DNA of 64,000 nucleotides from Kiritimatiellia bacterium (GTDB lineage Bacteria > Verrucomicrobiota > Kiritimatiellia > CAIKKV01): contig JAWOJA010000007.1 of assembly GCA_046484345.1 (NCBI GenBank), forward strand, positions 11,206-75,205. The letters are read 5' to 3'. Below are positions 2,396-53,700 of the stretch, piece by piece. The notes under the pieces are model-generated. The model was not told the DNA's origin. It saw nothing but the letters and a program-made list of their open reading frames with translations, and did not search any database. The translations under genes and the position numbers were made by a program. Every line of letters starts with the position of its first letter. Positions within the stretch are counted from its first letter, which is position 1.

Positions 2396-3733
2396 ATGTA
2401 CAAGGATAAATCGTTGTTTCGCCAGGTCGGTTTTTCGCTGATTTGCGCCGGTTTGCTGACGGCGGGTTGCAACCGCCAGAGTGAGACGACCAAGACCGAA
2501 GAGGCGGCCAAGCCCGCCGCCGCTCCCGAAGTCAAGGCCAGTGCCGCTGTCGATCCCGCCAAGGTCATGATCCAAATCGATGACAAGAAGATCACCGAAG
2601 GAGAGCTGACCAAGCAGGCCGCCGAACAGTACGAGCAGGTGGCCGCCATGGTCCCCCCGGAGCAGTCCGAGACCTACCGCAACCAAATGCGCGTCCAGGC
2701 CGCCCAGTCGTTCATCATCACCACGCTGCTGGAAAACGAAGCCACCAAGCGCAACATCACGGTCAATGAGGCCGATATCGAAAAGGCCATCGCCGATATC
2801 ACCAAGCGTCTCCCCGCGGATATGAACTTGGAGAAGGTGCTCGAAAAGGAGGGCATGACCCCCGAGACCTTCCGTGACCGTTTGAAAAAGGATCTTCGCA
2901 TCAAGAAGTTGTTCGATGTGGAGATGGATAAGGCCGGTCCGATTGCGGACAAGGAAGTCGCCGATTTCTACGCCAAACAGAAATCCGCCTTCGAAGTGCC
3001 CGAGCAGGTGACCGCCCGCCACATCCTCATCAAGGTGGATGAAAAGGACGATGAGGCCGCGAAGGCTGCCAAGAAGGGCAAGATCGAGGATCTGAAGAAG
3101 AAGATCGAAGCCGGCGCCGATTTCGCGACCCTCGCCAAGGAAAATTCCGACTGCCCTTCCGCCAAAGAGGGCGGCTCGCTGCCCAAGTTCGGCCGCGGCC
3201 AGATGGTGCCCGCGTTCGAGGAAGCCGCTTTCACGCAGGCCACGAATGTGGTGGGCCCGATTGTCGAGACCCAGTTTGGCTATCACCTCGTCCAGGTGAT
3301 CGAGAAGGACGCCGGGTCCACGCGCTCCCTCGAGGACGTCAAGGAGCAGATTCTCGACTACCTCAAAATGATGAAGAGCCGCACGATCATCCCGCCGTTC
3401 ATCGACAGCCTGCGCGCCAATGCCAAGGTGACCATCGACCCTGAGCTGGATGAAGAAATCCAGGCCCAGAAGCTGGCTGACGAAGCCCGTCAAGCTGCCT
3501 CCATGCAGGGCGACGAGGGCGACGAGGGTGAAGAGGGCGAAGAGCAGGAAGAAGAAGTTCAGGCTCCGGCCGTTGAACCGGCCCCGGAAGCCCCGGAAGC
3601 CCCGGAAGCCCCGGCGGCCCCGGAAGCCCCGGCGGCCCCGGAAGCCCCGGCGGCTCCGGAAGCCCCGGCGGCTCCGGAAGCCCCGGCGGCTCCGGCTCCG
3701 GCCGTCGAGGCCGTCCCGCCAGCGGCGAAATAA
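2396..3733 (+). CDS. Parvulin-type peptidyl-prolyl isomerase lipoprotein (PrsA/SurA-like) with acidic Pro/Ala-rich repeat tail
   Basis: RBS AAGGAG lies 7 nt before the ATG at 2396. Lipobox LLTAGC. Rotamase domain (ARHILIKV...FGYHLVQV). C-terminal (PEAPAA)n repeat. Confidence 0.75.
   Translation: MYKDKSLFRQVGFSLICAGLLTAGCNRQSETTKTEEAAKPAAAPEVKASAAVDPAKVMIQIDDKKITEGELTKQAAEQYEQVAAMVPPEQSETYRNQMRVQAAQSFIITTLLENEATKRNITVNEADIEKAIADITKRLPADMNLEKVLEKEGMTPETFRDRLKKDLRIKKLFDVEMDKAGPIADKEVADFYAKQKSAFEVPEQVTARHILIKVDEKDDEAAKAAKKGKIEDLKKKIEAGADFATLAKENSDCPSAKEGGSLPKFGRGQMVPAFEEAAFTQATNVVGPIVETQFGYHLVQVIEKDAGSTRSLEDVKEQILDYLKMMKSRTIIPPFIDSLRANAKVTIDPELDEEIQAQKLADEARQAASMQGDEGDEGEEGEEQEEEVQAPAVEPAPEAPEAPEAPAAPEAPAAPEAPAAPEAPAAPEAPAAPAPAVEAVPPAAK
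3581..3700 (+). repeat. In-frame tandem repeat (9/18-nt units gccccggaa / gccccggcggccccggaa) encoding PEAPEAPAAPEAPAA within the PPIase tail
   Basis: About 7 near-identical tandem copies, read directly from the sequence. Confidence 0.8.
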
Positions 3734-3736
3734 GGC

Positions 3737-4399
3737 GTGCCGCGACGGTTGTTTATCTTCGATCTGGACGGCACGCTGGTTGACTCCGCCGCCGATTTGG
3801 CGACAGCTGTCAACCTGACCCGGGCCGCGTTTGGGCTCGGTCCGATATCCGCGACTACCGTGACCGGTTACGTGGGCGATGGCATCCGCATGCTCATGGT
3901 TCGTGCGCTCCAAGACTGTCCTGACGCGGATATCGAACGGGCCGTGAATTTCCAGAAGGCCTATTATCTGGCCCATCTGTGCGATCAAACACGGTCCTAC
4001 GATGGGGTCAGGGAAGGCCTGGCCCATCTGCGCGTCCGCGGACATGTTCTGGCCGTAGCCACCAACAAGCCGGTGGATGTCACCGAAACGTTGCTGGCCG
4101 ATCTGAAGATGCGTCACCTTTTCGATGCAGTCTATGGGGGCGGCAGCGTGCCGGAGCTCAAACCGCATCCCGCCATGCTGGAAGCCGCCATGACCGGACT
4201 GGGATTCGGCCGACCGGACAGCTGGATGGTGGGGGATAACCGGACGGACTTGGAATCGGCGCGCCGCGCCGGGATCCGCTCGGTCCTGATGCGCTACGGC
4301 ATGGGCCGTTCGGACCCGGAAAAACCGGATTTGGCGTTCGACACGTTTTCAGAATTCGTGACACATTTTGAACCGGACTTCCGGGGGGATCAGAGATGA
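3737..4399 (+). CDS. HAD-superfamily hydrolase, phosphoglycolate phosphatase-like
   Basis: Motif I FDLDGTLVDS and the remaining HAD motifs are present. GTG start 3 nt after the PPIase stop. Confidence 0.7.
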   Translation: MPRRLFIFDLDGTLVDSAADLATAVNLTRAAFGLGPISATTVTGYVGDGIRMLMVRALQDCPDADIERAVNFQKAYYLAHLCDQTRSYDGVREGLAHLRVRGHVLAVATNKPVDVTETLLADLKMRHLFDAVYGGGSVPELKPHPAMLEAAMTGLGFGRPDSWMVGDNRTDLESARRAGIRSVLMRYGMGRSDPEKPDLAFDTFSEFVTHFEPDFRGDQR

Positions 4400-5499
4400 A
4401 AAAGCCATCGACCGTATATTTTGCATCCGTCGGCGTTGCCCGCCCCGAAGGCTCGGCAACCCTGCCCGCGAAGCTTCAGCGGATGCTGGCGCAATTCGAT
4501 CTCAAGGAGCTCAGCCAGGGCCAGGCCGTGCCCATCAAGATGCACCTGGGTGGAAACCTGGGCTATTCCACCATTCATCCTTTGCTGGTGCGCATGGTGG
4601 TCAATGCCGTCAAGGCCGCCGGCGGCAAACCGTTCGTGGTGGAAGCCGGCTTCGGCACCGTCGCCGCCGCGGCGGACCGCGGCTATACGGCCGAAACCCT
4701 CGGATGCCCCATCGTCGCGGCCGGCGGCCCGTATGACGCATACGTGGTGGAGCGCGAGGTCGGTTTCCGCCAGCTCGACAAGCTCCGCATTTACGGCACG
4801 ATCTGGGATGCCCCCTGCCTGATCAACCTCTCCCACGTCAAGGGCCATGGCGCCTGCGGTTACGGCGGCGCCTGCAAGAACATTGCCATGGGCTGTGTCG
4901 ATGCGAAAACGCGCGTCAAGATTCACGCCCTCGAGGGCGGGATCGATTGGGACAAGAACGCCTGCCTATTTTGCGGCCGTTGCGTGAAGGCGTGCGACAG
5001 CGACGCCATCACGCTCGACAAGAAGAAGAAATCCCTCGATATCTTTTTCCACAATTGCCGCTTCTGCCGCCACTGCGTGGCCGCCTGTCCCACGAAGGCG
5101 CTCGTCATGCGCGAGGAAAGCGGGTTCCGCTATTTCCAGGAAGGCATGGCGTTGACCACGAAAACGGTGCTGGATTCCTTCAAGCCGGGCCGCGTGCTGC
5201 ACATCAACGTGCTCACTCAGATCACTATGTTCTGCGATTGCTGGGGCATCACCACGCCCAGCCTGGTGCCGGACATCGGGATCATGGGGTCCACGGACAT
5301 GGTGGCGCTGGAAACGGCCTGCCTGAACGCCATCAAGACGGAGAACCTGATTCCCGGCTCCATCATCGGCAAGCGGAAAATGAGCAAGGGCTCGCATCTT
5401 TTTGAGCGGATTCACGGCAAGGATCCCTGGCTGCAGGTCAAGGCCCTGGAGGCGCACGGCGTCGGCTCCCGGAAGCACGTGGTCAAGGAAGTGGGCTGA
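4396..5499 (+). CDS. DUF362-domain protein with two 4Fe-4S ferredoxin motifs
   Basis: CxxCxxCxxxCP motifs (CLFCGRCVKACD, CRFCRHCVAACP). ATGA overlap with the upstream gene. Confidence 0.6.
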   Translation: MKKPSTVYFASVGVARPEGSATLPAKLQRMLAQFDLKELSQGQAVPIKMHLGGNLGYSTIHPLLVRMVVNAVKAAGGKPFVVEAGFGTVAAAADRGYTAETLGCPIVAAGGPYDAYVVEREVGFRQLDKLRIYGTIWDAPCLINLSHVKGHGACGYGGACKNIAMGCVDAKTRVKIHALEGGIDWDKNACLFCGRCVKACDSDAITLDKKKKSLDIFFHNCRFCRHCVAACPTKALVMREESGFRYFQEGMALTTKTVLDSFKPGRVLHINVLTQITMFCDCWGITTPSLVPDIGIMGSTDMVALETACLNAIKTENLIPGSIIGKRKMSKGSHLFERIHGKDPWLQVKALEAHGVGSRKHVVKEVG

Positions 5500-34078: not shown

Positions 34079-39514
<5,436 letters not shown>

Positions 39515-39607
39515 TCCAAGCCTTGCGCGAAGCATGGAGGGCGGCGCGCTGTCGCCGCCGCCGCATGGGATTGTCTCGGTTGATGGTTTCCGATACGCCC
39601 GCGAAGG

Positions 39608-39653
39608 TGGTGGGCAGTACAGGAATCGAACCTGTAACATCCAGCGTGTAAAG
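39608..39653 (-). pseudogene. 46-nt fragment of tRNA-Val (anticodon loop through CCA), inverted relative to the intact tRNA-Val at 44497; candidate att-site remnant
   Basis: The reverse complement of 39608-39653 equals ctttacacgctggatgttacaggttcgattcctgtactgcccacca, identical to the 3' 46 nt of the tRNA at 44497-44572. Similarity ends abruptly at the anticodon-stem/loop junction. Confidence 0.8.
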
Positions 39654-40051
39654 GTATTCAAGCTGTTTTCGTAAGTGCCACAATAAGAAGTTGTTGTGGC
39701 TATAAGCCCTTGAAAACACAATTTTTAAGGCGATCCAGATCGATCCGCCACGATAACAGGCGATCAAGTGAGAAACCAAGTGTCATGCGGTGTGTCATGC
39801 ACTTTGTTAAAAAGCATTTTATAGGGACAGGAAATGCGCTCTTATGATTGAGATTCTCCTGATATATCCACTGGACCTTAACAGGCGAAATCCTACCCTT
39901 ATCGCTTTACTCTATAATATTACTTTAAAGGATGTTGACTGAATGCCCTGTTGAGTCCAACATTGAAGAAGCTCGTTTTTGAGAAATTTCTCTTTGTCAA
40001 ACAAGACCCGCAAAGTCCAGAGGGGAACGAGACACCGAAAGGAGGCTACAC

Positions 40052-40273
40052 ATGGGCGACTGGTCAGACTACTTCGAGCAATTCCCCGAGGAGAATCCCG
40101 GCAACTACGATAAGAACGGCCAATTCGACCCGCACGGGGTTCTCCGGAAAGAGCGGGCAACCCAGCAACTTGCCCAAAGGCGTTTGACCGAAGTGCAACT
40201 GGCGAACGCAACGGCAACCCAACCGGTGACGCAAGTTGACACAGGAATATCCCAACACCCGCGTCCACGGTAG
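40052..40273 (+). CDS. Small (73 aa) hydrophilic hypothetical protein
   Basis: Strong RBS AAAGGAGG 7 nt before the ATG. Its stop codon lies inside REP-like hairpin copy 1. Confidence 0.45.
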   Translation: MGDWSDYFEQFPEENPGNYDKNGQFDPHGVLRKERATQQLAQRRLTEVQLANATATQPVTQVDTGISQHPRPR

Positions 40274-40301
40274 CCTCGCAAGCTCGGCACCGTGACGCGG
40301 G
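40258..40301 (+). repeat. REP-like imperfect palindromic repeat, copy 1 (core cacggtagcctcgcaagctcggcaccgtg)
   Basis: A 13-14 bp stem with one bulge (cccgcgtccacggt / accgtgacgcggg). Contains a GTAG tetranucleotide. The 29-nt core is repeated at 41699-41727. Confidence 0.6.
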
Positions 40302-40320
40302 ACGTTCGAATATAATAAGA

Positions 40321-41064
40321 ATGATAAAAACCATGACAGACATCCGTAAGTTTTGTGGATGGCTAATGCTGGTCTTGGTGATCGGCGAATTTGTATTCTT
40401 TGCCAACAGTTGGCTTCGATATTGCCCGCCAACCGAAGCACTCCAATTTGCTTTCAGCGGCGCGTGGTTTAGGGACAAATTCCCGTATGGCGGTGCAGGT
40501 TTCGCCTTGGATAAGCCGACGATAGGAAAATTATTCTTATGGACCTCAGTTTTGACCTGCCTCGCCTGCACAATAATATTGCTGCTACATACTGTCGTAG
40601 AACGCAATCACCGCGTGGGGTGGCGGTGCGCGAAAGCAAGTGCGGCTTTTCTTATTGCTTTTGTCTTGGTTGAGTTCCTCGTCCCAACCTTTTTTCTTGT
40701 TCAGTATGTTTTTTCCATGGGTGTGACGATTCGTCGGTTCCTGGGGCTTTGTTTGTGTTGTGGTTTTTGGTTCTCTCTTCCGTCAATCATATTCTGGATC
40801 AGGAAGACGGGGCCATCGCTGATAGATTGGAAACGTAATCCTCTTGTTTTAGCGCTCGCCTGCTCTATTGTTATTCCTACTTACTATTTGATCCTCATAC
40901 TGCAACCATACGAATGTCGCCATTGGGGAACAGTAAACACAATGTTCTTACTTGCATGGCTAATGCTGGTTGCTCCAATACTCTGCGTCATGTGGCTAAA
41001 CTCACGGGTCAAGACTAATGTCACCGAACCAGCGGTTGCGACTAACCGCAAGAGCCGCAATTGA
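40321..41064 (+). CDS. Hypothetical polytopic membrane protein (about 6 TM), low-GC
   Basis: Six predicted hydrophobic helices. No recognisable catalytic motif. ATGA overlap with the next ORF. Confidence 0.45.
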   Translation: MIKTMTDIRKFCGWLMLVLVIGEFVFFANSWLRYCPPTEALQFAFSGAWFRDKFPYGGAGFALDKPTIGKLFLWTSVLTCLACTIILLLHTVVERNHRVGWRCAKASAAFLIAFVLVEFLVPTFFLVQYVFSMGVTIRRFLGLCLCCGFWFSLPSIIFWIRKTGPSLIDWKRNPLVLALACSIVIPTYYLILILQPYECRHWGTVNTMFLLAWLMLVAPILCVMWLNSRVKTNVTEPAVATNRKSRN

Positions 41065-41681
41065 ACCTAGTCATTCAGGCAGTGGCCGCACAGGCCAGTC
41101 GTTCGGCAGGCAAACATCACATGACAAAACATCGCATCGTATTCATTGGCGCATGGATAGTGCTCATATTAGCTCTTTTCGCGTTCCCGGGGTTCGAGGC
41201 ACGAGGTATCGCGAGTGGTCTTGTCATTGGCTGGTGGCCTTTCCTGTTCCTCGGACCCCTGGTCGCAAATTCACAGAACGGGGAGGGAATCGCATATCTC
41301 ATTGCCTTCATAACGAGCGGGACAATAGTTGGATTTTGTGCATGGGTTATGGACAGAGCTGAATTGACGAAAAAGGCCTGGCTGGTGTTACTGTTGTCGA
41401 TCATAGGAGGAGCCGCCGTTATCTACGTCTTGACCGATTACAGTTTTGATGATTGGAAAAGATCTCCCGCTGTGTCGGCTGCAATGGAGTCACCAGAATT
41501 GAGCTACGAACCCACAGGGGGGGAGTTTAACGAGTCAATTGTGATACCGCAATTGCTGGCCGGTGGCATGTGGGGTCTATATGTGGCTACAACCTTGAGT
41601 TTCTTTTATTCAATAATCCTCTTGAGGATACTTCGCTTGAAGCAGATGCAGGCGGCGGCTGACTCACAACATGAAACATGA
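41061..41681 (+). CDS. Hypothetical polytopic membrane protein (about 5 TM), low-GC; alternative start at 41121
   Basis: Hydrophobic helices. Translationally coupled to the upstream membrane protein. REP-like copy 2 lies 12 nt after its stop. Confidence 0.45.
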   Translation: MNLVIQAVAAQASRSAGKHHMTKHRIVFIGAWIVLILALFAFPGFEARGIASGLVIGWWPFLFLGPLVANSQNGEGIAYLIAFITSGTIVGFCAWVMDRAELTKKAWLVLLLSIIGGAAVIYVLTDYSFDDWKRSPAVSAAMESPELSYEPTGGEFNESIVIPQLLAGGMWGLYVATTLSFFYSIILLRILRLKQMQAAADSQHET

Positions 41682-41692
41682 AGCCGAACACT

Positions 41693-41730
41693 GCGGCGCA
41701 CGGTAGCCTCGCAAGCTCGGCGCCGTGCCT
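41693..41730 (+). repeat. REP-like palindromic repeat, copy 2 (core cacggtagcctcgcaagctcggcgccgtg)
   Basis: 28/29 identity with the copy-1 core; the flanks are unrelated. Confidence 0.6.
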
Positions 41731-41943
41731 CGAAGAGGCATTGGGGTCACGTCTATAAATTCTAATTTCATAAATTAGGGACAAATAGCCTTCTCATGCG
41801 GAGCATCCGCTTTCCGAAGGCTGAGTAGCTCCCGTTGTCGTTGAACGGGGCAACCGAGTACCAGAGATCCGACTCCTTCGTCGTCCGGATCACGGTGCCC
41901 GGCACGGACTGCACTTCCTTCATCAACGTGTCCGATTCTCGCT

Positions 41944-42945
41944 TCACGTCGATTGCACGGTTCCCGGACGCTCGTACGGCGCATTGTAACTGACGATGGC
42001 TTGTGCCCATTCATTCAGTTCCATGCATTGTTCGCGGGTGACCGGCTTGCGCTGCCTTTGGTAAGGGAATGGGGCGATCATCAGCAGTCGTCCTGCGGCG
42101 CAGGCATCGAAATAGCGTCCAATGGGTTTGTATTGGGGCGCGAACCCATTGGCGAGCAGCACTATGAGTGGTCGGCCGGCTTCCAGCGCCGCACGGGCAA
42201 TGGCTTTCTCTCCAGGGCTGATGCAGGGAGAAACCAGAACGGCGCCGTGTTCCGCTTCGCAGAGCAGTTCCCGCCGCCTGGCGTCCAGTTCTTCCGCAGA
42301 GACGCGCCGCGAGACTTGGATCTGGCATTTCAAAGGGTGCTGCAGGAGAAAACGGTTGCCGATGGCGGCAGAGGTTCTGCCGGCGGCGATTTCCAGATGG
42401 GAGACAACGGTAAAGAGGCTCGGGTTCGCCCTTTTCACGGCCAGACGCCGGGGATTGTCTGCAATATAGGCCGCCATGGCCTTCAACTGGCCACGGCGCA
42501 GGAGGATGCTATCCTGGAAACCGGGCTGCCATAACCCGGCGGCAGGGGCTGCCGCCCGAACTGGACTGGAGGCTGCCGCCGGGTCCGGGCGCAGGAGCAA
42601 CCCCCTGCTCCTGCATTCCTTCTCGCTCACGCTCTTGAACGCCTTCACCATGTGGCCCATCGGCCGCACCAGGCGTTCTTTGACCCAGAGAATGCCATGA
42701 AAGTGGTCGGGCATCACCACATGCTCGCAGGCCTCCACTCCGGGATACACGGACGAACTCCGCCGCCAGACGTCGCGGACGATCTCCCCCATGGTCGAGA
42801 GTGCCATGGCGGCCTGGCCGCCGGGGCCGGCATGCAACGCGCCGAGGCAATTCCGCCGCTGTTCGGTGACTACCGTAATCATGTAGAAGCTGGGAGCGTA
42901 GTAGTCGTGCTCCCAGCAGCGCTGAAGCATTCCCGTGTTGCTCAT
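41944..42945 (-). CDS. REP-associated tyrosine transposase (RAYT)-like HuH/Y1 protein with a ~140-aa C-terminal DprA/SLOG-like extension
   Basis: N-terminal ~190 aa carries the RAYT hallmarks YY...ITVVT, HuH motif VVMPDHFHGILWV, and catalytic-Tyr motif YIADNPRRLAV (compare YIxxNPVRAGLV). The C-terminal region resembles the DprA Rossmann domain (VLVSP.ISPGEKAIARAALEAGRPLIVLL...LLMIAPFP). The second domain is tentative. Confidence 0.6.
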   Translation of the reverse strand: MSNTGMLQRCWEHDYYAPSFYMITVVTEQRRNCLGALHAGPGGQAAMALSTMGEIVRDVWRRSSSVYPGVEACEHVVMPDHFHGILWVKERLVRPMGHMVKAFKSVSEKECRSRGLLLRPDPAAASSPVRAAAPAAGLWQPGFQDSILLRRGQLKAMAAYIADNPRRLAVKRANPSLFTVVSHLEIAAGRTSAAIGNRFLLQHPLKCQIQVSRRVSAEELDARRRELLCEAEHGAVLVSPCISPGEKAIARAALEAGRPLIVLLANGFAPQYKPIGRYFDACAAGRLLMIAPFPYQRQRKPVTREQCMELNEWAQAIVSYNAPYERPGTVQST

Positions 42946-44496: not shown

Positions 44497-44572
44497 GGGC
44501 AGTTAGCTCAATTGGCAGAGCGCCAGCTTTACACGCTGGATGTTACAGGTTCGATTCCTGTACTGCCCACCA
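44497..44572 (+). tRNA. tRNA-Val (anticodon TAC)
   Basis: 76-nt cloverleaf: acceptor GGGCAGT/ACTGCCC, D-arm GCTC...GAGC, anticodon loop TTTACAC, T-arm ACAGGTTCGATTCCTGT, 3' CCA encoded. Confidence 0.9.
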
Positions 44573-44886
44573 TCATCTATCCTGTCCGCTATCCGCTATC
44601 CGCCGGGCAATCGATGTGAAACGGGAGCCGGATGCTAATTTTGGGAGTAGGGGCAGCCACAAAGCCATTTATCGAGTCACTTGGCTTATTTATTATTGTT
44701 AGGACTGATTTCAAGATTCGGTATCGTAACATCCGCAATGCCGGATTCCAGCATAAACGCATACATTCATACGCCTCATTTCCTTCGGCCGAAGGAGTCG
44801 TAAACCGATCAAATCCATAAACCCGTTTTACGATGACCATTTTCTCGGTATCAGTTTGTCGTTTGTCGGGACTTGACCCCTTTCGG

Positions 44887-44921
44887 AAAAAAGCCCGCAA
44901 AGAGGGTGCTTTGCGGGCTTT
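44887..44921 (-). terminator. Rho-independent terminator downstream of the XRE gene
   Basis: On the minus strand reads AAAGCCCGCAAAG-caccct-CTTTGCGGGCTTTTTT: a GC-rich stem followed by a U-run. Confidence 0.6.
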
Positions 44922-44939
44922 CAGGAATGGGAAAACGAA

Positions 44940-45194
44940 TCAACCGCGTTTCTTGCCGGCCTTGCCGGTGCCGATGAGCTTCAGCCCCTTCGTGGCATCG
45001 ATGCCGAGGGCTTCGCAGAAGCGGACATACTCCAGCACGTCCAGGCGGCGTTCTCCGGTTTCATTCTTGCTCACCCAGGAGGGCGGCATTTTGAGGGTCT
45101 TGGCCAAGGTCCGAAGCGTGATCTTCTGGGAGGTCCGCGCATTCCGCAACCAGGCGAGCAACTCGGCAAACTGCTTTATTTGTTTCGTTTTCAT
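44940..45194 (-). CDS. XRE-family helix-turn-helix transcriptional regulator (Cro/CI-like)
   Basis: An 84-aa HTH_XRE domain (LRTLAKTLKMPPSWVSKNETGERRL). Lies in an AT-rich segment between two tRNA genes. Confidence 0.7.
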   Translation of the reverse strand: MKTKQIKQFAELLAWLRNARTSQKITLRTLAKTLKMPPSWVSKNETGERRLDVLEYVRFCEALGIDATKGLKLIGTGKAGKKRG

Positions 45195-45208
45195 GCTGTA
45201 TAGAGTAC

Positions 45209-45221
45209 CTGTTTTGAACAG
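45209..45221. promoter_or_regulatory. Small inverted repeat CTGTT-ttg-AACAG 15 nt upstream of the XRE start; candidate autoregulatory operator
   Basis: Perfect 5-bp arms with a 3-nt spacer inside TACCTGTTTTGAACAGTA. Confidence 0.3.
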
Positions 45222-45332
45222 TAATACAATGCTGATATTTTAAGGTTTTTAGACCCCGGGATTCATGTTTTGCCCGATAAACAGGTTTGCTTTGATTTTG
45301 GCGGGGCCGGTTGGTAAGATGGGCTTTCTTTA

Positions 45333-45409
45333 AGGGCCCATAGCTCAGTTGGTCAGAGCGGGAGACTCATAATCTCTTGGTCGCAGGTTCGAGCCCTGCT
45401 GGGCCCACC
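45333..45409 (+). tRNA. tRNA-Met (anticodon CAT; elongator, or tRNA-Ile2 if lysidinylated)
   Basis: 77-nt cloverleaf: acceptor GGGCCCA/TGGGCCC, anticodon loop CTCATAA, T-arm GCAGGTTCGAGCCCTGC, CCA encoded. Confidence 0.85.
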
Positions 45410-46632: not shown

Positions 46633-47701
46633 GGCGCCGGCCGCCGGGGATGTCCTCTGGATCCGCGCGGTGAACTGGCTGGGCGACAGCGTGATGACGC
46701 TGCCCGCGCTGGGTGCCTTTCGCGCGGCTTTCCCCCGGGTGCGCGTGCTCATGGGCTGCCGCCCCGGACTGGCCCCATTTTGGGAAATGTGCCCCTCCGT
46801 GGACGGCGTCACGCTGCTGCCCCCCGGCGGGATGGGCGACTGGGCGGCGGCCCGGGAACTGCGCCGCCTGGGCGCGGGGCGGGCGGTTGTTTTTCCGCAC
46901 TCTTTCCGCTCGGCCTGGGTGCCCTTCCTGGCCCGCATTCCCGAGCGGATCGGCTATGCGGGCCATTTCCGGCGCTTTCTGTTGACGCGCGCGGCCTCGC
47001 CGGTTTCCTGTCCGGGCTCGGCGCACCAGGCGCTCGATTATTATCCGCTCCTGGGCGTGGTGCCGGACGTCGTTCCGCCGGCGCTGGACGGGCTGTTGCG
47101 CGTTCCGGAGGCGGTCCTGCTGGCGACGGCGGAGCGGCTTGGCCGGGCTGCGGCGGCGTTGCCGGGATTTCCGCCCGGTGGGCCCTGGATGGCGGTGGCG
47201 CCGGGCGCGGCCCGCGGCGGATCGAAGCGCTGGCCGGCGGAGCATTTCGCCGCCGCCGTCGCCCGGATCGTGCGCGAGCGGCCCTGCGGGGTCCTCGTGT
47301 GCGGCACGCCGGCGGAGAAGGCGGCGGCGGCCCAGATCGCCGCGGCGGCGCCGGGGGCCGCCGTGGACCTGACGGGCGCCACGACGCTGGCGCAGCTGGC
47401 GGCGGTGTTCCGTTTGTGCCGCCTTGTGCTGTGCAACGACAGCGGGGCCATGCACCTGGGCGCGGCGGTCGGCACGCCCGTGGTGGCGATTTTCGGCCTG
47501 ACGGATCCCGGGCGCACGGGGCCGCTGGGCCTCGGGCATGCGGTGCTGGCGCCGACGGGGGTCGCCGGCCACGCCGCTATTGCGCGGGAATCCGGCCGGG
47601 CGGCCGAAGTGTTGGCGGCCATCCGGCCGGAGTCGGTGGCGACCGCGGCCATCGGGATATTTAACGGCAACGGAAACGGGGGGGCGCCTCATGCGCGATA
47701 A
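46598..47701 (+). CDS. ADP-heptose:LPS heptosyltransferase (GT9 family, WaaF/WaaC-like)
   Basis: GT9 fold motifs (WIRAVNWLGDSVMTLPAL..., CNDSGAMHLGAAVGTPVVAIFG). Confidence 0.75.
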   Translation: MNAFPASAPCAEAPAAGDVLWIRAVNWLGDSVMTLPALGAFRAAFPRVRVLMGCRPGLAPFWEMCPSVDGVTLLPPGGMGDWAAARELRRLGAGRAVVFPHSFRSAWVPFLARIPERIGYAGHFRRFLLTRAASPVSCPGSAHQALDYYPLLGVVPDVVPPALDGLLRVPEAVLLATAERLGRAAAALPGFPPGGPWMAVAPGAARGGSKRWPAEHFAAAVARIVRERPCGVLVCGTPAEKAAAAQIAAAAPGAAVDLTGATTLAQLAAVFRLCRLVLCNDSGAMHLGAAVGTPVVAIFGLTDPGRTGPLGLGHAVLAPTGVAGHAAIARESGRAAEVLAAIRPESVATAAIGIFNGNGNGGAPHAR

Positions 47702-50726: not shown

Positions 50727-53700
50727 AGCCGTTGAGTTCCTTGAGGCGGGGGAAGGCCTGAAACAGGCCCATTTGGCCCATCTGGCCGGGGCGCAGGTCG
50801 CAGTACAGGATTTCAAGGTCGGGGGAGCGCAGGACGGCCAGGCACTCGGGATTGAGCCCCTCGCAGCGCAGCTCGGTCAGCGGAGCGCTCGCCAAGGGCT
50901 TCAGGCTGGTCACCTTGGTGTTGGAGAGGATGACGCGGCTCAGGGGCATCCCCTCCAGGGGCGACAGATCGCCGATGCCGGTGTTGGCCGCCACGAATTC
51001 CGTGAGCGACAGGCCGCGCAGGGGAGTCAGGTCCTCGATCAGGGTTCCGCTGAAGGCGATGACTTTCAAAGGCAAGCCGGCGAGCGGGGTCAGGTCTTTT
51101 ATCCGGCAGTTGTTGAAGCGCAGTTGTTCGATTTTATGGCCCTGAAGGGGCGACAGATCCTTCACGGGGGTGCCGGAGATGTTCAGATTCTGCAGGGGCA
51201 TCCGGCGGAGGGCGGTTAAGTCGTTCAGTTTGGTGTTTGCCAGGTTGAGTTCGACGAGCGGCATCTCGGCCAGCAGGGAGGGGTCCTTGAAGCCGGTGTC
51301 GGCCGCCTGGAAAACGGCCAGTTGCGGGAAACGGCGCAGGGAGAGGAAGTCGAACACCTTGGTGCCCGAGATGTTCATATCCCGCAGGGGCATGTCGCGG
51401 ATGAAGGAGAGTTCGCTGAACGGAGTGTTGGCGAGGTTGACCCGGGTGAGGCTGAAGTTGCGCAGGGGATCGAAGATGGAAACCCGTGTGGCGGCGATTT
51501 CCAATTCCAGCAGCGGCATGCCGCGCAGGGGGCTCAGGTCCTTGACGCGAGTGTTGTTCAGGTTCAAAGATTCGAGCCGAAGATCTTTGATGGCTGCCAG
51601 GTCCGCCACGGAGGAGCCTGCGAGATTCAGCCGGCGCAGGCGGCTCAAGCCGGCGAGGGGCGCCAAGTTGGCGGCCTGGTTGTCGGGTATGGAGAGGCAC
51701 TCAAGGGAGGCCGCCAGTTTGTTCAGGGGCTCCAGGTTCTGCAGGTGGGGGGATTTGCACTCGAAGCGGACGATGTTTCCCCGGCTGTCCGTTTCGCACT
51801 TGATGTTGAAAAGTTTCAGGCCGGGATTGGCCTCGACCAGCAGGGCGGCGAACGCATCCGCAGAGGGTCGGATGCCGTCCGCCGGAGCAGCTTTGGCAGG
51901 CTCCGCGCTTGGGGGCGGGGCGACGGTTGGAGCGGCCGGCCGCGCGGCGGCCGCTTCGGCTTCGCGTCGCTCAAGCCCCGCGAGCAGGCGGGGGCCCAAA
52001 GGTTCCGGGAGGGCCGAGAAAAAGAGGCGCGCGTCGGCGGCGCCGCGGTTGTGCAAGGCGGCGCAGCCCTTGAACAGGGCGACATCGGGATCGGTGTCCG
52101 GTCCCATGCGCTGGAGCCGTTCTCGTGGCGCCAGTTCGTCGAATGAAAAGCGGATTTTGATGAGCGCCACGGCCACGCCCTCGCCGACAGAGACCTTCTG
52201 GTCCCCGAAAACAGCGCCGTTGCGCACGGCGTCGAGGACGATGGTTTTGGGGCCGGACAGGAGTTGGACCGTCACCTCCTGGCCTGCCTGGCGAGTGAAC
52301 GAATCGGCGATTTTCTGATCCATGGCCCCGGCCTTTTTGACAAGGTCGGCAACGGTCTTCAATTCGGCCAGCAGGGATTGCATTTCCGGGCGGCTTTCGG
52401 CCGCGGCGAGTGTTTGGGCGGCTTCTTCCAGCCGGTTTTGGAGCAGGCTGGCGACTGCTTCATCCAGGAGCCCCTCGAAGGCGAGGCGGGCTTCGTTTCC
52501 CTGTGCCTGCCGCGACTGGTGGGCCTGGGCGGCCTTTTTCCGCCAGCGCTGGGCTTCGATCCGGCGTTCCCGGCCGGTCTCGGCGGCCAATTTTCCGGAA
52601 TAATCCTCGAACAGCGCGGCCGCATCGTCGAATTGCCGCGCCTGGCCCAGCTTGGCGGCGCCGTCCCGGAGTGGCTGCATGACGCCCTGGAGGGCGGCCT
52701 GGCGTGCCTCGCGGACGGAGCGCATGGCGTCCAGGGCCATCAGCGAGTACTTGGAATCTCTAGTCGCCTTGGCCACGCGGTCGAACTGGTCGATGGCCTC
52801 CTGGTAGCGTTCGGGATTGGACTGCCACCAGTTTTTGGCGAACTCGAACATCTCCGCGTACCTTTTTTCGGCGCTATCCACGGCCGGGTTGGGCGTGGGA
52901 GCCGGGGCCCGGTGCACGGCCGGCGGCGGTCTGAGCGGGGTGTGGGGGGCGGCGCGGGGCCGGAAAATGAAATACGCGGCCACGGCCAGCGCGGCCAGGA
53001 TTCCGATAACAAGCAACGTGCGCAACACCGTATCCGAGGAGGAACCCGGCGCCTTGTCCAGCGTCGTCGTGGGAGGCGGGGCGGGCTGGTGGGGCTTCAG
53101 GCGCCGGTTGCTGCGTTGCATTACGCTGCCGACGGGGGCGGGGAACGGCGGGGCCGGGTATCCGCGCCGCATCAGGCGCGCGACATCGGCCGTCACCGCC
53201 GACCAGTCCGCGTGGCGGTGTTCGCGGTTGCGCGCCAGCATTTTTTCGGTCATCCAGGCGATGCGGGAGGAGAGGGACGGGGTCAGGTCAAGCACGTCGG
53301 GGACCTGGCCCTTAAGCATCAGGTCCAGGACGGCATCGTCCGCGGTGCCTTCGAACAGCATTTTTCCGGTCAGCATCTGGTAGACCGTGGCGCCCATGGA
53401 AAAGATGTCCGTCCGGGTGTCCAGGGCGGGCGTTCCGATAATCTGCTCGGGCGACATGTACTGGGGCGTGCCCATGACTTCGTCGGTCTGGGCGAGGGCG
53501 TTCATGCCCCCCAGGGTGGTGGCCAGGCCCAGATCGGTGACTTTGACCGATCCGTCGGCGTCGATCAGGATATTGTCGGGCTTGATGTCGCAGTGGATCA
53601 GGCCCGCGCTTTTCCAGGCGTGGCCGAGGGCTTGCCCGACGTGTTCGAGCACGAAGAGGACCTCGTCCTCCGACATCTTCTTTTTGCGCCGGATGCGGTT

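Follow-up and report, generated by a model that had tools for sequence, protein, structure and literature searches.

Why do three small genes lie side by side in a patch of DNA poor in guanine and cytosine (GC), and do they work together? The genes, here ORF1, ORF2 and ORF3 (ORF, open reading frame; NCBI locus tags R6X19_00605, R6X19_00610 and R6X19_00615), occupy positions 40052-41681 of the window, that is, of the 64 kb analysed here from a 91,448-bp contig of a Kiritimatiellia metagenome-assembled genome. The original prediction, made from the letters alone, had taken them for one accessory system, made up of a soluble protein and two membrane proteins with coupled translation. Its description of the frames stands. 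All three are co-oriented; the first follows a strong ribosome-binding site (RBS) and encodes a soluble protein of 73 residues, and the others encode membrane proteins with about six and about five transmembrane (TM) segments.

The answer favoured here is that these genes are separate passengers. [quoted passage not shown] Each gene, to judge from its predicted boundaries, is a cassette of its own with the layout G|TT, leader, ORF, attC. The array reads, all on the plus strand: ORF1 and attC1; ORF2 and attC2; ORF3 and a degenerate attC3 (Table 1). What had been an unknown three-gene system is replaced by integron cassettes with mapped (predicted) crossover points.

Composition points to recent horizontal acquisition of the trio, because GC is low and the contrast with neighbouring genes is sharper still at third codon positions (GC3). 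GC is 0.50 at 40052-41681 and 0.49 at 39654-41760, against 0.649 for the whole window; the low value had been predicted, at about 45% rather than the 50% found. GC3 is 0.66 for ORF1, 0.51 for ORF2 and 0.54 for ORF3, against 0.84-0.88 in the neighbouring UvrA-like, malic-enzyme and ClpB-like genes. The trio forms the main low-GC patch of the 64 kb; the sole other patch, at 44.3-45.3 kb, holds tRNA-Val, an Xre-type helix-turn-helix (HTH) gene and tRNA-Met.

Table 1. Features of the cassette array and its immediate flanks (positions in the window)
Feature	Position	Strand	Remarks
tRNA-Val 3' fragment, orphan, att-like	39603-39653	-	47 identical nt, anticodon loop to CCA
Cassette 1 leader	40021-40051	+	RBS AGGAGG at 40040-40045
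ORF1, 73-residue acidic soluble protein	40052-40273	+	N-terminal motif MGDWSDYFEQFPEENPGNY; AGGAGG six bases 5' of ATG
attC1, 61 nt	40250-40310	+	R'' TCCCAAC (40250-56), R' GTTCGAA (40304-10); predicted crossover G40304|T40305
ORF2, 247-residue six-TM membrane protein	40321-41064	+	ATG 17 nt past attC1 crossover
attC2, 85 nt	41023-41107	+	R'' ACCGAAC (41023-29), R' GTTCGGC (41101-07); predicted crossover G41101|T41102
ORF3, 186-residue membrane protein, about five TM	41121-41681	+	ATG 19 nt past attC2 crossover
attC3, degenerate terminal site	41683-41746	+	R'' GCCGAAC; ATT (41740-42) in place of R' GTT
RAYT-like gene, neighbour outside array, 333 residues	41944-42945	-	HUH/Y1 transposase-like N-terminal domain

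attC sites and cassette boundaries

The case for cassettes begins with the neighbourhoods of homologues. Drawn from 5.8 billion clustered proteins, these number nine for ORF1, 27 for ORF2 and 13 for ORF3. Several of their loci (given L numbers here) are runs of small co-oriented ORFs with intergenic imperfect palindromes of about 60-85 nt, which a repeat search brought out; GCCGAACCAGCGGGTCGAGCCTACCGCCTGACGGCGGCGGCTCACCCGCAACGTTCGGT is an example. In twenty attC sites from four loci (L039, L028, L029 and L009), AAC (5' end) and CGTT (3' end) are invariant, and the consensus is GCCGAAC...AACGTTCGG. In their alignment the seven-base terminal stem covaries, with a score of 0.261 against 0.130 in shuffles (reached by 0/500 shuffles), and paired cells drop from 81% to 16-38% once the pairing is slid.

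These 20 sites, with none from the window among them, were made into a covariance model, R1, which was run unfiltered on both strands of the 64 kb. Its top match is attC1 (22.8 bits, E 0.003), at the 3' end of ORF1, and its second is attC2 (15.1 bits, E 0.25), at the 3' end of ORF2; the sites overlap the final codons of ORF1 and the 3' end of ORF2, respectively. A third match, at 52837-52894 on the minus strand, was rejected as false: it has no fold and lies inside a 1100-residue ORF.

Both sites fold as DNA. The attC1 fold reaches -18.4 kcal/mol (z -3.9) and that of attC2 -17.7 kcal/mol (z -2.75), each equalled by 1/200 shuffles. In attC1 the AAC/GTT R stem leads through an internal loop of 1-2 nt to an 8-bp stem, a bulge, a 5-bp stem, a second bulge and a 10-nt loop; the two bulges, G and T in the bottom-strand fold, sit on one arm. 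Known attC sites have the inverse cores RYYYAAC/GTTRRRY, of which AAC/GTT alone is universally conserved, and the extrahelical bases G16 and T23 have been described for attC-aadA7 (PMC5027507). Both attC1 and attC2 contain AAC and GTT, which form pairs when the sites fold; each 7-mer departs from the consensus at one or two positions.

An integrase gene is missing. Neither tblastn with the integron integrase of locus L022 nor a tyrosine-recombinase motif scan found intI or an intI pseudogene in the window, which covers 40 kb upstream and 22 kb downstream of the array. IntegronFinder calls a CALIN where two or more attC sites lie on one strand within 4 kb of each other and no intI is nearby (PMC4889954). 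With attC1 and attC2 on the same strand 773 nt apart and no intI to be seen, the array is a CALIN by that definition. It resembles others in its small, co-oriented, apparently promoterless ORFs, each with an attC, and in its cargo of unknown function, as in most CALINs. It differs in having only two canonical sites out of three, no TT of the core at either outer junction, and an orphan tRNA fragment 400 nt off. Published origins of CALINs are loss of intI, rearrangement that splits an integron, and insertion at a secondary site (PMC4889954).

Promoter and terminator scans of the locus gave background levels, with no promoter upstream of ORF1, and expression of the array without an integron promoter is uncertain. 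Rfam, searched over 39450-42000, gave no match at the gathering or E-value threshold; it holds no attC family.

The closest relative of ORF1 (L027; 89% identity in protein, 91% in DNA) resembles the window over 40031-40302 and no further, a span made up of ORF1 plus attC1. For the ORF1 cassettes of L028 and L029, similarity to the window begins at 40023, straight after their R' GTT, and the R'' TCCCAAC at the ORF1 C-terminus is found again after their ORF1 homologues. In L028, L029 and L009 the ORF1 homologue is a single cassette within an array. The next gene differs every time (SHOCT, FKBP, or Thoeris-like TIR/Macro), and GTTGGG or GTTAGA stands about 30 nt 5' of the homologues' starts.

ORF2 homologues have GTTCGG or GTTAGA 15-30 nt 5' of their ATG. 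One of them (L039) has a canonical attC on either side, in an array with eight or more attC sites that includes a ParE-like cassette. The R'' sequence at the ORF2 C-terminus in attC2, ACCGAACCA, recurs after the ORF2 homologues of L039 and L015, and in L015 the attC that closes the homologue scores 20.5 bits.

ORF3 supplies the link to a complete integron. Its homologues carry GTTCGG, GTTAGG or GTTAGT 4-20 nt 5' of their starts. In L022, a 347-residue IntI scores 455.7 bits against NCBIfam TIGR02249 (cut-off 265 bits), the sole tyrosine-recombinase motif match among all loci. Its gene is read divergently from the ORF3 homologue, which makes that homologue the first cassette of a complete integron. 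The junction TCGTTCGGCA is common to attC2/ORF3 in the window and to the boundary upstream of the L022 homologue: TCGTTCGGCAAATGACATATG in L022 matches TCGTTCGGCAGGCAAACATCACATG in the window.

These boundaries also bear on the start of ORF3. The original prediction had coupled ORF2 to ORF3 through an ATGA overlap. ORF2 ends in AATTGA, and the sole overlapping start for ORF3 is the TTG at 41061, annotated by NCBI (R6X19_00615, 206 residues). The alignment of all 13 homologues begins at M.KHR, the equivalent of the ATG at 41121; N-terminal extensions are not conserved. Because the cassette begins at 41102 and the annotated TTG falls inside attC2, ORF3 most likely starts at that ATG, giving a protein of 186 residues that begins 56 nt past ORF2 and is free of translational coupling. 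The public annotation of ORF3 would be corrected to this start. For ORF2, NCBI takes the second ATG (243 residues), and homologues favour the one at 40321.

IntI binds the folded bottom strand of attC and cuts between the G and the TT of the GTTRRRY core. An IntI encoded elsewhere would, by analogy, excise circles of ORF plus attC and insert them at attI or attC sites. Such cassette mobility accounts for the occurrence of each gene alone in many neighbourhoods and phyla, for the GTT core a few bases 5' of the homologues' start codons, and for the foreign codon usage.

The array can be set beside sedentary chromosomal integrons such as the Vibrio superintegron and those of Xanthomonas. Common to both are attC sites that are alike within an array and cassettes for proteins of unknown function; related arrays carry toxin-antitoxin modules (ParE, L039), and a homologous cassette adjoins a true intI (L022). 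The window array differs in having no integrase, attI or Pc, only three cassettes, a Kiritimatiellia host, and attC of the CCGAAC...GTTCGG type.

Integrons have already been recorded in Verrucomicrobia and Planctomycetes (PMC4889954). A literature search found no paper linking integrons with Kiritimatiellia. By way of CCGAAC...GTTCGG attC sites, cassette families are common to this Kiritimatiellia genome and to Victivallales, Verrucomicrobiota and Hydrogenedentota. The mechanism itself is textbook, and knowledge of how integrons work is unchanged.

Several points weigh against an integron origin. The structure content of model R1 is a 5-bp R-box only, which makes it mostly a sequence model, and the attC calls come from this ad hoc model rather than from the curated model of IntegronFinder. 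Even there, attC2 scores just 15.1 bits, with an E value of 0.25, and its fold is branched, not a clean hairpin. The third site, attC3, went undetected by R1, lacks a GTT core, and has a weak attC-like fold.

Both outer junctions are also non-canonical. On the right, ATT replaces GTT; on the left, cassette 1 begins GAG|GGGAACGAG in the window as against GTT|GGGAACGAG in L029, and neither attC nor attI was found at 39654-40020, upstream of ORF1. L027 has part of the same left flank (GACCCGCAAAG), so this junction is older than the split of the two lineages. Finally, attC1 and attC3 share a 29-nt core, CACGGTAGCCTCGCAAGCTCGGC[A/G]CCGTG, at 40266 and 41699, both on the plus strand and identical at 28/29 positions (chance expectation, 0.02 copies). 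Near-identity of this kind goes beyond standard attC x attC exchange; it needs the homogeneity of attC sites within an integron, or another duplication.

Other accounts of the locus

Could the locus be the decayed end of a genomic island at tRNA-Val, with hairpins that are terminators or stability elements and genes that are leftover cargo? The tRNA-derived fragment noted in the original prediction is real: it repeats 47 nt of tRNA-Val's 3' part perfectly and stands 400 nt upstream of ORF1, the low-GC DNA being on its island side. Moreover, in L030 an ORF1-like gene and a P4-type integrase are 2 kb apart. However, the fragment (51 nt in all) is inverted with respect to the intact tRNA-Val (44497-44572, plus strand), no integrase or direct att repeats are present, and the hairpins have no T-tracts. 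Nor would an island explain the AAC/GTT cores, the matches to the attC model, or the cassette-wise distribution of homologues. As a full account of the locus it is improbable, and a simple attL/attR island at tRNA-Val was rejected. It is compatible with arrival of the array on such an island, and is to that extent only a partial rival.

The two tRNA-Val copies are 4.9 kb apart. Between the fragment and the array lie 398 nt of non-coding DNA (42% GC); between the fragment and the intact gene lie the cassette array, the RAYT-like gene and a high-GC malic-enzyme gene, and each tRNA copy has low-GC DNA on one side. The two copies suggest an old island plus an inversion, and a scenario of inversions that would restore a canonical island was considered. 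The orphan fragment suggests a tRNA-targeted island, since decayed, as the possible carrier or landing place of the array; with its inverted orientation and no integrase present, this is a tentative reading.

A three-gene operon, in which the soluble protein and two coupled membrane proteins form one defence, immunity or toxin-immunity system, has very little to recommend it. The ORFs are co-oriented and tightly spaced, homologues of ORF2 and ORF3 are neighbours in L015 as well (in reversed order), and homologues lie near defence and toxin-antitoxin genes in other arrays. Yet every ORF has its own attC, ORF2 and ORF3 do not overlap in an ATGA, and attC2 contains the TTG start. Homologues of the three are unlinked nearly everywhere, including the closest relatives of ORF1 (L027) and of ORF3 with flanking sequence (L020, 74% protein identity), the latter with no ORF2 upstream. 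The original prediction had itself named lack of conservation as a unit as the observation that would tell against it, and the neighbourhood check found the homologues separate.

The idea of accessory cargo fares better than that of a system. Horizontal acquisition and a mobile setting hold, with homologues near ParE, AbiEi/AbiEii and Thoeris-like TIR/Macro genes, and no defence model matches: the PADLOC search that had been proposed recognised none of the three proteins. The original prediction could assign no motif to them; Pfam, NCBIfam, PADLOC and PHROGs all gave zero matches, and structure searches likewise yield no function.

The remaining account joins the hairpins to the transposase-like gene next door. 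This gene had been called RAYT-like, and a weak match exists: its product scores 48.2 bits against NF047646, under the cut-off of 80 bits, and the motifs HUH and Y..NP can be picked out by eye (HFHGIL, YIADNP). Its C-terminal half, about 160 residues, is without assignment, a Pfam search of the protein gave zero matches, and its GC3 of 0.73 lies between those of the cassettes and the core genes.

That the hairpins are repetitive extragenic palindromes (REPs) of this transposase, and that ORF2-ORF3 were mobilised in trans in the manner of IS200/IS605, can be set aside as highly improbable: two hairpins in the same orientation, with near-identical cores, do bracket ORF2 and ORF3, and an HUH/Y1 transposase-like gene does lie 200 nt off, but the 64 kb contain just two copies, both direct, with none beyond the far (5') side of the RAYT-like gene and no inverted pairs (REPINs), hairpin 1 accompanies ORF1 in L027, L028 and L029, where no such transposase was seen, the family match is below its cut-off, and the hairpins have AAC/GTT inverse cores and match the attC model. 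The likeness to REP/RAYT systems ends with short GC-rich palindromes beside an HUH/Y1 transposase-like gene; copy number, orientation and sequence cores differ. The hairpins that the original prediction saw exist, as attC sites and not as dispersed REPs, and the RAYT-like gene, with no tie to them, is the neighbour of the array rather than its partner.

The cassette cargo

On the cassette reading, the three proteins can be considered one by one. ORF1 is hydrophilic, with zero hydrophobic segments, and its family shares the N-terminal motif MG[DE]WS[DE]YFE.FPEENP[AG]N. Against plasmids, phages and IMG/VR, only relatives by this motif were found. It occurs in a 65-residue ORF (L030, 1973-2170) on an IMG/VR element with a P4-type integrase and AlpA. 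It is also fused to a CxxC...CxxC Zn-ribbon in proteins of 129-144 residues on plasmids of Vibrio, Acinetobacter and Psychrobacter (L031, 4001-4390; L032, 2252-2683; L033, 1023-1457). A Pfam search of the motif family gave zero matches.

Proteins with this motif form an unnamed small-protein family tied to mobile elements, from cassettes of the Planctomycetota-Verrucomicrobiota-Chlamydiota (PVC) group to gammaproteobacterial plasmids.

A separate observation concerns the company of one ORF1 homologue. In L009-L013 (for example, L009, 3332-6000), genes for ThsB-TIR, ThsA-Macro and SEFIR/TIR proteins stand in the same attC-punctuated array as the homologue. These Thoeris-like genes are likely defence genes carried as integron cassettes.

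ORF2 and ORF3 are rare membrane proteins found mainly in the PVC group, ORF2 also in Hydrogenedentota. Homologues of ORF2 show 44-58% identity, and among 185,579 species genomes it occurs in five: Victivallales, Kiritimatiellae, Hydrogenedentota and two Verrucomicrobiota. The family alignment, A1, has 30 invariant positions. AlphaFold2 gives six long helices (predicted local distance difference test score, pLDDT, 73.5; predicted template-modelling score, pTM, 0.71). By the positive-inside rule, both termini would face the cytoplasm (N-in/C-in), with the motifs ALDQPTIGK and QY..SMG.T.RR in periplasmic loops.

Remote relatives of ORF2 were sought by a full search of 1.84 billion representatives with a hidden Markov model (HMM), which gave 94 relatives; the core that they have in common spans about 120 residues. 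Of 87 that were scanned, twelve weakly match part of DUF4153, under threshold (best E 1.5e-5; one example scores 17.2 bits, where the cut-off is 27). Assignment of ORF2 to Pfam DUF4153 was rejected: ORF2 itself has no match, every match among the remote relatives is short of the gathering score, and no function for that family emerges from the literature.

Structure searches with ORF2 returned generic bundles only, with cytochrome b561 topmost. That identity was rejected as well. Cytochrome b561 has four conserved haem-ligand histidines on its central helices, for which ORF2 offers no counterpart: A1 shows no histidine in its 30 invariant or 51 nearly invariant columns. Identity of ORF2 to DUF4153 and cytochrome b561 is 7-13%. 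A sequence search of the PDB with profiles A1 and A2 found no match, and neither did tblastn of ORF2 and ORF3 against plasmids and phages, or IMG/VR scans.

The settings of ORF2 homologues are varied: an integrase and defence-like genes (L001); Lar, AbiEi/AbiEii, a Mu portal gene and Fic (L037); a ParE-like toxin (L039); between PAP2 and YhdP (L004); next to Tex (L003, L017); and next to a gene for a B12-binding radical SAM enzyme (L034-36, L015). In an uncultured Verrucomicrobiota (L019, 1585-2107) the homologue is split across two frames and is probably a frameshifted pseudogene.

ORF3 is predicted at about five helices (AlphaFold2 pLDDT 72.8), and the loop DWKRSPAVSAAMESPE.SY.PT is invariant in its family. 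By the positive-inside rule its conserved motifs, like those of ORF2, would face the periplasm, both being polytopic inner-membrane proteins. A structure search found no relative, and hhalign finds ORF2 and ORF3 unrelated to each other.

Are these two proteins connected by function? When all fetched loci were searched with profiles, ORF2 and ORF3 co-occurred nowhere but in the window and in the Victivallales contig L015, two arrays from different phyla in which the pair is adjacent, in opposite orders. In Victivallales-like loci, a four-helix protein of 196-201 residues and an ArsR-type regulator adjoin the ORF3 homologue (L007) and lie near the ORF2 homologue (L034). These loci also encode a class-B B12-binding radical SAM enzyme without an NCBIfam equivalog, 62% identical between L015 and L034.

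Next to these orthologous enzymes, an ORF2-like part occurs in two arrangements. L015 has a polytopic protein of 557 residues (2751-4424) with an ORF2-like core at its C-terminal residues 422-548, including GGALDQP and QMGFTPMR. L034 (6086-8095) has a 375-residue version followed by a separate ORF2 homologue; the 375-residue family is 44% identical to the 557-residue protein of L015. The partner genes of the radical SAM neighbourhood were searched for in the 64-kb window and are absent.

The fusion in L015 and the two adjacencies of ORF2 and ORF3 hint at a shared membrane process, with the caveat that adjacency inside cassette arrays may be fortuitous. It is doubtful, on present signs, that the two are a co-selected pair from an undescribed PVC-group module for envelope or membrane-lipid modification. 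If they were, integrons would be spreading pieces of an envelope or lipid pathway among Kiritimatiellota, Lentisphaerota, Verrucomicrobiota and Hydrogenedentota. The best guess, held with low confidence, is that ORF2 and ORF3 are accessory proteins acting at the envelope rather than members of a defence or toxin-immunity trio. Rare, well conserved and uncharacterised, the three cargo families are reasonable targets for functional screens of integron cargo.

Neighbouring genes

Three further observations concern DNA outside the array. Upstream, at 34079-39514 on the plus strand, lies a gene for a protein of 1811 residues, about twice the size of a normal UvrA, with UvrA DNA-binding and interaction domains and about four ABC ATPase modules. 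From this domain content it looks like a tandem-fused UvrA-like protein. The second low-GC patch (0.50) spans 44573-45333, from tRNA-Val to tRNA-Met, and its Xre-type HTH gene, at 44940-45194 on the minus strand, encodes 84 residues. Finally, at 47050-47650, directly upstream of a glycosyltransferase gene, GC rises to 0.77-0.80 with a strong AT skew.

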